DNA from: Escherichia coli | Lineage (GTDB): Bacteria > Pseudomonadota > Gammaproteobacteria > Enterobacterales > Enterobacteriaceae | Assembly: GCF_003334335.1 (NCBI RefSeq) | Contig: NZ_QOWQ01000148.1 | Direction: 5' to 3' (one strand) | DNA: 837 nt | Shown: positions 1 through 837 of the stretch, in pieces | Layout of the letters: every line of letters begins with the position of its first letter | How positions within the stretch are numbered: the first letter of the stretch is position 1 | Program-made: the position numbers and the translations under genes | The notes under the pieces: generated by a model | Seen by the model: only the letters and a program-made list of their open reading frames with translations | Databases searched by the model: none | Told to the model about the DNA's origin: nothing

Positions 1-381
1 CTGAACGCCGGTGATACGGCCACGGATACCACGGTAAATGGCGGACTGTTCACCGCCAGGGGCGGCACACTGGCGGGCACCACCACGCTGAATAACGGCG
101 CCATACTTACCCTTTCCGGGAAGACGGTGAACAACGATACCCTGACCATCCGTGAAGGCGATGCACTCCTGCAGGGAGGCTCTCTCACCGGTAACGGCAG
201 CGTGGAAAAATCAGGAAGTGGCACACTCACTGTCAGCAACACCACACTCACCCAGAAAGCCGTCAACCTGAATGAAGGCACGCTGACGCTGAACGACAGT
301 ACCGTCACCACGGATGTCATTGCTCAGCGCGGTACAGCCCTGAAGCTGACCGGCAGCACTGTGCTGAACGGTGCCATTGAC
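1..381 (+). other. flu: C-terminal rungs of the passenger-domain (alpha43) beta-helix
   Basis: Repeated short beta-strand-like motifs with alternating hydrophobic residues (xLxLxx, TLTV, TLTL) separated by Gly/Asn turns. The in-frame hexanucleotide ctgaac (Leu-Asn) recurs five times, at nt 1, 289, 364, 538 and 646; the first four are followed by g, and the last two lie beyond this sub-feature. Domain assignment follows the established Ag43 architecture. Confidence 0.7.
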
Positions 382-837
382 CCCACGAATGTCACTCTCG
401 CCTCCGGTGCCACCTGGAATATCCCTGATAACGCCACGGTGCAGTCGGTGGTGGATGACCTCAGCCATGCCGGACAGATTCATTTCACCTCCACCCGCAC
501 AGGGAAGTTCGTACCGGCAACCCTGAAAGTGAAAAACCTGAACGGGCAGAATGGCACCATCAGCCTGCGTGTACGCCCGGATATGGCACAGAACAATGCT
601 GACAGACTGGTCATTGACGGTGGCAGGGCAACCGGAAAAACCATCCTGAACCTGGTGAACGCCGGCAACAGTGCGTCGGGGCTGGCGACCAGCGGTAAGG
701 GTATTCAGGTGGTGGAAGCCATTAACGGTGCCACCACGGAGGAAGGGGCCTTTGTCCAGGGGAATAAGCTGCAGGCCGGTGCCTTTAACTACTCCCTCAA
801 CCGGGACAGTGATGAGAGCTGGTATCTGCGCAGTGAA
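1..837 (+). CDS. flu: Internal fragment (5' and 3' ends outside the window) of a self-associating autotransporter adhesin of the Antigen 43 family; covers the C-terminal passenger beta-helix, the alpha/beta junction and the autochaperone region
   Basis: Frame 1 is open across all 279 codons, whereas the other frames are interrupted. The composition is rich in Thr/Gly/Asn/Leu/Ser/Ala with short repeated motifs typical of a beta-helical passenger domain (TLAGTTTLNNGAILTLSG, TLTVSNTTLTQKAVNLNEGTLTLNDSTV). The C-terminal stretch HFTSTRTGKFVPATLKVKNLNGQNGTISLRVRPDMAQNNADRLVIDGGRATGKTILNLVNAGNSASGLATSGKGIQVVEAINGATTEEGAFVQGN.LQAGAFNYSLNRDSDESWYLRSE matches my recollection of E. coli K-12 Flu (Ag43) around residues 425-703. 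Identity is from memory, not from a search. Confidence 0.88.
   Translation, partial: MNAGDTATDTTVNGGLFTARGGTLAGTTTLNNGAILTLSGKTVNNDTLTIREGDALLQGGSLTGNGSVEKSGSGTLTVSNTTLTQKAVNLNEGTLTLNDSTVTTDVIAQRGTALKLTGSTVLNGAIDPTNVTLASGATWNIPDNATVQSVVDDLSHAGQIHFTSTRTGKFVPATLKVKNLNGQNGTISLRVRPDMAQNNADRLVIDGGRATGKTILNLVNAGNSASGLATSGKGIQVVEAINGATTEEGAFVQGNKLQAGAFNYSLNRDSDESWYLRSE
379..384 (+). other. flu: Asp-Pro dipeptide (GAC CCC), candidate alpha43/beta43 processing site
   Basis: Codons 127-128 of the window encode D-P within ...VLNGAID|PTNVTLASGATWNIPDN.... Ag43 is reported to be processed between Asp551 and Pro552, and the window position is consistent with that numbering if window codon 1 is about residue 425. 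Exact residue numbers are from memory. Confidence 0.5.
382..837 (+). other. flu: N-terminal part of beta43: autochaperone/junction region preceding the outer-membrane beta-barrel translocator
   Basis: This is the sequence downstream of the Asp-Pro site and before the expected beta-barrel. It is less regular than the upstream rungs and contains charged segments (RVRPDMAQNNADRLVIDGG, NRDSDESWYLRSE), consistent with the autochaperone segment found in AIDA-I-type autotransporters. The barrel itself would lie beyond the 3' end of the window. Confidence 0.6.

Follow-up and report, generated by a model that had tools for sequence, protein, structure and literature searches.

Among the systems closest to the locus described here is Antigen 43a of UPEC CFT073, whose alpha-domain structure (PDB 4KH3) was reportedly presented by Heras and colleagues in 2014. 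Antigen 43a is assigned to class C3, with the subdomains SL2-EJ1-BL1 (Ageorges et al. 2019, PMC6668479). Four Ag43 allele classes, produced by the shuffling of subdomains, have been described, and so has a difference between seven and four rungs (PMC8993888; PMC6668479). In published structures, the C-terminal helix has four rungs in the BL2 class compared with seven in the BL1 class (PMC8993888). The alpha-domain constructs followed the cleavage site as it had been determined, and this site is located between helix and AC domain (Vo et al. 2022, PMC8993888). The periodicity of the rungs is already known, and so are the L shape of the beta-helix, the autochaperone domain, the allele classes and the contrast of seven with four rungs.

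We analysed a stretch of 837 nt from Escherichia coli, referred to in its full length as the window. A preliminary description, made from the letters alone, had attributed it to agn43. It had also read the recurring Leu-Asn and Thr-Leu-Thr motifs as beta-helix rung repeats, visible in both the protein and the DNA, and had proposed that homologous recombination could use them as substrates.

Frame 1 of the + strand contains no stop across all 837 nt and accounts for the window fully, while the other frames hold ORFs of 32-90 aa. The first residue of the window corresponds to residue 425 of K-12 Ag43, and K-12 agn43 is 99.4% identical to the window at the nucleotide level. Residues 1-127 of the window protein match residues 377-503 of PDB 4KH3 with 100% identity over 127 aa, and the Ag43 structures 7KO9 and 7KOH match the remainder. 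A megablast search against 5,426 complete E. coli genomes matched the window in 2,417 of them, with as many as five copies in a genome and about 3,100 BL1-type copies overall; in about 2,400 of the genomes, the matches are annotated as agn43. The NCBIfam profile NF033177 (auto_Ag43), which has a curated whole-protein cut-off of 1200 bits, scored 1869.6 bits with a full-length allele (L004) that stands 3 nt from the window and 254.5 bits with the 279-aa window protein alone, which is only a fragment. Together with the AC_1 and Pertactin domains, these matches uphold the earlier attribution: judged by sequence, the window is a piece of E. coli agn43, which encodes an autotransporter adhesin of the Ag43/Cah family. 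A scan of the window for promoters and terminators retrieved none, and an Rfam search of both strands, in permissive E-value mode, returned a single, meaningless 11.7-bit match. The window is laid out as follows:

1 to 837, + strand: internal fragment of agn43 (flu), class BL1 (Ag43a/K-12 type), with frame 1 uninterrupted, equivalent to K-12 Ag43 residues 425-703
1 to 381, + strand: C-terminal part of the alpha43 passenger ('bottom of the L' beta-helix), aa 1-127, the part identical to 4KH3
379 to 384, + strand: Asp127-Pro128, the alpha43/beta43 processing site; the 4KH3 construct terminates at Asp127
445 to 798 (aa 149-266), + strand: autochaperone domain type 1 (Pfam AC_1, PF18883), E=3.5e-19, covering model positions 1-114 of 114
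aa 157-277, + strand: Pertactin (Pfam), E=3.4e-12, overlapping AC_1

We take Asp127-Pro128 to be D551/P552 in the K-12 numbering of the alpha/beta processing site; a full-text literature search on the D551/P552 site returned irrelevant papers only. This layout narrows the passenger range of nt 1-560 given in the preliminary description. Its first part stands, as nt 1-381 encode alpha43, while nt 445-798 belong to AC1 and lie past the processing site.

Rungs of the beta-helix and the placement of Leu-Asn

An AF2 model of the window protein reached a mean pLDDT of 93.5 and superposed on the alpha43 crystal structure 4KH3 at 0.6 Å over 127 shared residues; its alignment input consisted of homologous proteins shorter than 500 aa only and is not a census of full-length proteins. 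The leading structural matches of the model were Ag43, IcsA, pertactin and Hap, while AC1 matched 7KOH, 7KO9, IcsA and pertactin. Strand assignment with DSSP gave three strands per rung of 19-20 aa and seven rungs in aa 1-135 (nt 1-405), the same number as reported for alpha43a (PMC8993888). In the model, an eighth, transitional rung follows, and then AC1. The seven rungs, delimited by the AF2/DSSP strands, are:

1 to 57, + strand: Rung A (aa 1-19), LNAGDTATDTTVNGGLFTA
58 to 114, + strand: Rung B (aa 20-38), RGGTLAGTTTLNNGAILTL, containing the 16-nt repeat of nt 81-96
115 to 174, + strand: Rung C (aa 39-58), SGKTVNNDTLTIREGDALLQ
175 to 234, + strand: Rung D (aa 59-78), GGSLTGNGSVEKSGSGTLTV
235 to 291, + strand: Rung E (aa 79-97), SNTTLTQKAVNLNEGTLTL
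292 to 348, + strand: Rung F (aa 98-116), NDSTVTTDVIAQRGTALKL
349 to 405, + strand: Rung G (aa 117-135), TGSTVLNGAIDPTNVTLAS

The same period is found in the protein sequence. The best ungapped off-diagonal self-match lies at a lag of 19 aa and scores 77, compared to 37.7±6 in shuffled sequences, none of which (0 out of 300) reached 77. This diagonal aligns aa 8-107 with aa 27-126 (aa 8-126 overall) at 25% identity and is accompanied by secondary, weaker diagonals at lags of 40, 59 and 78 aa. A gapped protein self-alignment scored 91 (52±10 in shuffles), and the autocorrelation of identity at lag 19 gave z=4.7. The 19-aa period is present throughout the whole passenger and drops to background level beyond approximately residue 650, with a lag-19 identity of 0.25-0.30 upstream of the window, about 0.19 in the window helix and 0.12-0.15 in AC1. 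Thus, the motifs belong to a degenerate rung repeat of a right-handed beta-helix, as had been proposed, and the protein self-similarity exceeds the shuffled background.

Two curated repeat models gave no signal on these rungs. The Pfam AIDA model (PF16168) had no match in the window protein at E<=10, and neither did TIGR04415 at E<=0.001. In the full-length protein, TIGR04415 did match, scoring best on a stretch that lies upstream of the window. Rungs of the window type have been described as beta-solenoid coils of T5 type, not T4 type (PMC6668479), and the silence of both models fits this assignment as well as the degeneracy of the rungs.

CTGAAC has five copies, at nt 1, 289, 364, 538 and 646, always on the + strand and in frame 1, where each encodes Leu-Asn. 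The following base is G in the first four copies and C in the fifth, and CTGAACGCCGG at nt 1 differs from GTGAACGCCGG at nt 655 by one mismatch. A recount found all these coordinates, as listed in the preliminary description, to be correct. In the model, the copies do not share one rung position. The first (nt 1-6) would encode the Leu that closes strand 3 of the preceding rung, followed by the turn Asn, a placement taken from the copy in register with it, 96 aa further downstream, as the preceding rung lies outside the window. That downstream copy (nt 289-294) straddles the boundary between Rungs E and F, at the end of strand 3, and is in register with nt 1, five rungs (96 aa) away. By contrast, the copy at nt 364-369, in Rung G, falls at the end of strand 1, a rung position unlike that of nt 1 and 289. 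The copies at nt 538 and 646, as well as GTGAACGCCGG (nt 655-665), are placed in AC1, within long hairpin strands. On the modelled strands, then, the five hexamers do not mark one rung position, and nt 1 and nt 289 are the only rung-equivalent pair. We had considered the five copies as marks of a single rung position and rejected this, given that they fall at three different strand ends, with two of them in AC1.

The dipeptides themselves are consistently placed. In aa 1-135, wherever a modelled strand precedes an [LVI]N, the dipeptide closes that strand at its C-terminal end and leads into a turn of 2-3 residues. These pairs end strand 3 at aa 1 (judged from the register) and 97, strand 2 at aa 12, 30, 88 and 90, and strand 1 at aa 43 and 122. 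The three short strands of a rung each tend to close with an aliphatic residue, and Asn, Gly or Asp then stands in the turn; the same dipeptide is, therefore, met several times in a rung, at three positions that are not equivalent. The aliphatic residue at the strand end would pack into the core; this is a deduction made independently of coordinates, as strands and faces were assigned from the DSSP string and the period, and from these we also infer whether Leu and Asn point inward or outward. Since Leu is mostly encoded by CTG and Asn mostly by AAC in agn43, the dipeptide appears in the DNA as CTGAAC. We, thus, consider it very probable that the hexamers are the protein rung repeat of the Ag43 beta-helix seen through codon bias, and that the mosaicism of agn43 alleles stems from in-register recombination.

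Recombination among alleles and between length classes

The window was compared with 18 further BL1-type alleles, at 94-99.6% identity, and the resulting set of 19 was chosen to cover identity bands rather than sampled at random. All 19 alleles are exactly 837 nt long and collinear, with no indels and no stop codons, and they differ at 109 variable sites. The four-gamete test required at least 18 recombination events within the 837 nt, and a PHI-type permutation test was significant (P<0.001). The agn43 alleles in this set are, therefore, dense recombinant mosaics, and in this respect the allelic mosaicism invoked in the preliminary description was confirmed.

The same description had gone further and proposed that the rung repeats, CTGAAC(G) especially, act as substrates of homologous recombination within or between agn43 copies, creating allelic diversity. 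The spacings between the CTGAAC copies, all of which are multiples of 3, speak for such a role, as do the exact five-rung distance from nt 1 to nt 289 and the presence of up to five agn43 copies per genome. However, the recombination intervals are not enriched at the motifs. The 18 minimal intervals overlap two of the five hexamers, compared to a mean of 3.2 at random (probability of an overlap at least as large as observed, 0.94), and four of the eight Leu-Asn codon pairs, compared to 5.1 at random, both comparisons being of low power, with intervals that cover 56% of the window. Nor are the hexamers conserved at synonymous sites: a synonymous C-to-T change destroys the copy at nt 646 in 9 out of 19 alleles.

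Length polymorphism was absent as well. Among full genome matches sampled down two match rankings (39 and 59, 98 in total), length variants numbered 0 out of 39 and 0 out of 59, and each match spans the exact query length in one piece. Coverage of at least 80% of nt 1-560 was found in 2,404 out of 2,406 matching records. The window contains no exact Chi site (GCTGGTGG) and five 7/8 matches to it.

The repeats are also short. The longest exact direct repeat in the window is 10 nt, which is at chance level (mean of 9.3 in dinucleotide shuffles), and no 12-mer is repeated in the window. In the whole agn43 gene, the longest exact repeat measures 16 nt, and nt 81-96 (CACCACGCTGAATAAC) form a 16-nt exact copy of a stretch located 912 nt upstream. 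RecA-dependent recombination in E. coli reportedly has a minimal processing segment of about 23-27 bp, a value attributed to Shen and Huang (1986), and the uninterrupted identity between repeats, in the window as in the gene, is below it.

The strongest argument for recombination at the rungs comes from the BL2-class alleles (EDL933/UTI89 type), in which the span is 92 aa shorter than in BL1. The block absent from BL2 (about 89-96 aa) starts at the Leu-Asn of aa 1 and ends near the Leu-Asn of aa 90 and 97, a loss that would fit an old out-of-register event between motifs of the rungs and is in line with the published rung counts of the two classes (PMC8993888). At the DNA level, a single part of the window has homology to BL2-class agn43:

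535 to 837, + strand: sole stretch homologous in its DNA to BL2-class agn43, 80.5% identity

No alignment of BL1 with BL2 DNA was possible over nt 1-534, and no BL1/BL2 deletion junction is readable at the DNA level, the flanks being about 45% identical. The lack of alignable DNA over nt 1-534 indicates that the difference in rung number is ancient and has left no readable junction. Moreover, any viable deletion would be required, on structural grounds, to remove whole rungs, whichever the mechanism. Taken together, the absence of indels, the lack of interval enrichment at the hexamers and the shortness of the repeats make it quite improbable that the repeats are homologous recombination substrates.

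A more restricted event in the past is doubtful, if less so. The seven-rung BL1 and the four-rung BL2 forms might have been separated by an old out-of-register recombination, or by replication slippage, between rung-equivalent motifs. The LNAGD... rung at aa 1 and the LNEG... and LNDST... rungs at aa 90 and 97 would be the candidate motifs for this out-of-register event, because the block missing in BL2 begins and ends at them. If this were true, rung repeats would have shaped the length classes of Ag43 at least once in the past, though they are inactive as substrates today. Homologues with seven rungs also occur in other genera, Pantoea included. As a separate matter, gene conversion from BL2 was considered for a linked SNP block at nt 674-793 and rejected, since the one BL2 allele compared shares the variant state at two of its sites only.

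For the alleles of the BL1 class, we favour ordinary in-register homologous recombination as the probable source of mosaicism, acting on alleles and paralogous copies, which share 95-99% identity over their full length. Alleles this similar can recombine in register anywhere, so internal repeats would not be needed.

Codon usage and the recurrence of CTGAAC

Whether the recurrence of CTGAAC appears exceptional depends on the null model. Five copies are far above the mean of 0.54 in dinucleotide shuffles, where 0 out of 200 reached five, and permutation of codons gave P=0.0095 for CTGAAC specifically. However, 27% of codon permutations contain at least one hexamer that reaches five copies. The proper null for a coding sequence is a synonymous-codon shuffle in which the protein is kept. 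Under this null, 3.95 copies of CTGAAC are expected compared with the five observed (P=0.33), and 2.5 copies of CTGAACG compared with four (P=0.16). At least one hexamer reaches five copies in 78% of synonymous shuffles, and the real window has seven different hexamers at five copies each.

These figures lend some weight to the idea that composition and codon bias brought about the hexamer recurrence purely by chance, and that it means nothing for the structure. This is very improbable, as the protein itself is enriched in the motifs: Leu-Asn occurs eight times compared with 2.9 expected (P=0.004), being the most enriched of the frequent dipeptides, and [LVI]N[GADN] nine times compared with 2.2 (P<0.0002). 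Likewise, Thr-Leu-Thr occurs four times (aa 47, 75, 82 and 94), with 0.65 expected (P=0.003), so the recurrence of both motifs noted in the preliminary description is real. The strong 19-aa periodicity and the consistent location of the dipeptides at strand ends also argue against coincidence. CTGAAC recurs in the DNA because of this excess of Leu-Asn combined with the codon preference of the window, in which CTG encodes 21 out of 30 Leu and AAC 19 out of 27 Asn.

There is next to no case for the repeats being leftovers of a recent duplication of rung units that is still visible in the nucleotides, as the identity at a lag of 57 nt (0.354) and the 27 shared 8-mer pairs, which exceed dinucleotide shuffles (0.260±0.014 and 8.3, respectively), are both matched by synonymous shuffles (0.346±0.010, P=0.27; 18±6, P=0.11), while adjacent rungs share only 25% protein identity and Tandem Repeats Finder, at a minimum score of 30, reported no arrays in the window.

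Given a lag-57 identity equal to that of synonymous shuffles, exact repeats of at most 10 nt and the empty Tandem Repeats Finder output, the repeat is a protein-level feature, which the DNA mirrors through codon usage alone. The preliminary description was, therefore, mistaken in taking the repeats as visible at the nucleotide level in their own right. Under the codon-bias reading, the protein repeat alone would be maintained, and the DNA, which has no trace of duplication, would not be a recombination substrate of its own.

The biological significance of these observations is small, and the finding is an ordinary one. The lesson is methodological: the in-frame recurrence of an oligonucleotide in a gene for a repeat protein needs a synonymous-codon shuffle before it is read at the DNA level, and here this control erases the nucleotide signal entirely. 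A by-product is the quantified in-register mosaicism, with at least 18 events per 837 nt in 19 alleles and length fully conserved within the BL1 class.

Comparison with known systems

The tandem repeats of contingency loci, known from other surface proteins, change their copy number through slippage or unequal recombination. Like them, the window belongs to a surface adhesin, with in-frame spacing of its motifs and several paralogous copies per genome. In contrast to them, the window has no DNA tandem repeat, its identity is imposed by the protein, and no copy-number polymorphism was seen.

The AIDA-I-type repeats (PF16168; TIGR04415) share the 19-aa period and the fold class, and their models recognise the upstream part of agn43. 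The rungs of the window differ in that they are unrecognised by these models, more degenerate (lag-19 identity of about 0.19 compared with 0.25-0.30 upstream) and of T5 type (PMC6668479).

The Ag43 proteins of EDL933 and UTI89 (7KOH, 7KO9; PMC8993888), which represent BL2 classes, likewise have an L-shaped beta-helix followed by an AC domain, and aa 175-279 of the window, in AC1, align to both PDB chains (E=3.4e-35 for 7KO9). They differ from the window in their four-rung C-terminal helix, compared with seven rungs, in being 92 aa shorter and in DNA that is unalignable over nt 1-534.

From Antigen 43a (4KH3), the window does not detectably differ wherever the crystallised domain covers it: the sequence is the same throughout aa 1-127, the C-terminal helix likewise has seven rungs and the C-terminus is the same Asp, beyond which the window extends into AC1, a domain absent from 4KH3.

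The 5' mosaic junction and internal repeats

The agn43 allele of strain KS-NP019 differs from the window at 35 positions, 31 of which fall within nt 4-135, forming a divergent 5' haplotype, and it is nearly identical to the window after this block. Much of the block is common to isolate J31. The KS-NP019 allele is clearly a mosaic, whose junction falls in the interval nt 135-259. This junction lies away from any site of the in-frame Leu-Asn hexamer CTGAAC (nt 1, 289, 364, 538 and 646), which the preliminary description had proposed as a substrate for recombination. The longest exact repeat in the entire agn43 gene is CACCACGCTGAATAAC, at nt 81-96, whose 16 nt also occur without mismatch 912 nt (16 x 57, the rung being about 57 nt) further upstream, in the part that forms the helix stem.

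No exact Chi site (GCTGGTGG) was found in the window, which contains five 7-of-8 matches against 1.5 expected, a count of at least five being reached in only 2 of 200 shuffles:

nt 447-454, 7-of-8 Chi match
nt 491-498, 7-of-8 Chi match
nt 557-564, 7-of-8 Chi match
nt 686-693, 7-of-8 Chi match
nt 708-715, 7-of-8 Chi match

This excess probably reflects the Gly/Val/Thr-rich codon content.

Interrupted and displaced agn43 sequences

Among the matches listed, the only full-length 100% match to the window was found in strain G1/2 (locus L001, 1543-2884), where agn43 is interrupted by an insertion of IS421 (IS4-like). The C-terminal piece left by this split begins 117 nt before the first base of the window; directly downstream of agn43 lie IS66 genes. 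The KS-NP019 allele (L015) is itself truncated by ISEc8. Strain UTME-8 carries an orphan 128-nt agn43 fragment (L016, 3001-3128), corresponding to window nt 10-136 with 96% identity, with a gene of the inovirus Gp2 family on one side and degraded gsp pseudogenes on the other; a 'GspK' pseudogene annotation covers part of it. Two database proteins (P0016 and P0060) also contain Ag43 segments, 95-99% identical, despite bearing the names 'CbtA family toxin' and 'antirestriction protein'; both are probably chimeras or wrongly called ORFs derived from the neighbouring CP4-44-type island genes.

Conserved 3' region and relation to BL2-class alleles

DNA homology to the BL2-class agn43 alleles (EDL933/UTI89 type) begins abruptly at nt 535, at the conserved core of the autochaperone domain AC1, and nt 535-837 share 80.5% identity; upstream of nt 535, no BL2-class DNA match was found, even by word-11 blastn. 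Among the 19 BL1-type alleles, the last 39 nt (nt 799-837, RDSDESWYLRSE) contain no variable sites, compared with 10-17 per 100 nt elsewhere, and the encoded peptide is also almost unchanged in BL2-class proteins, as it is in the homologues of 55% identity.
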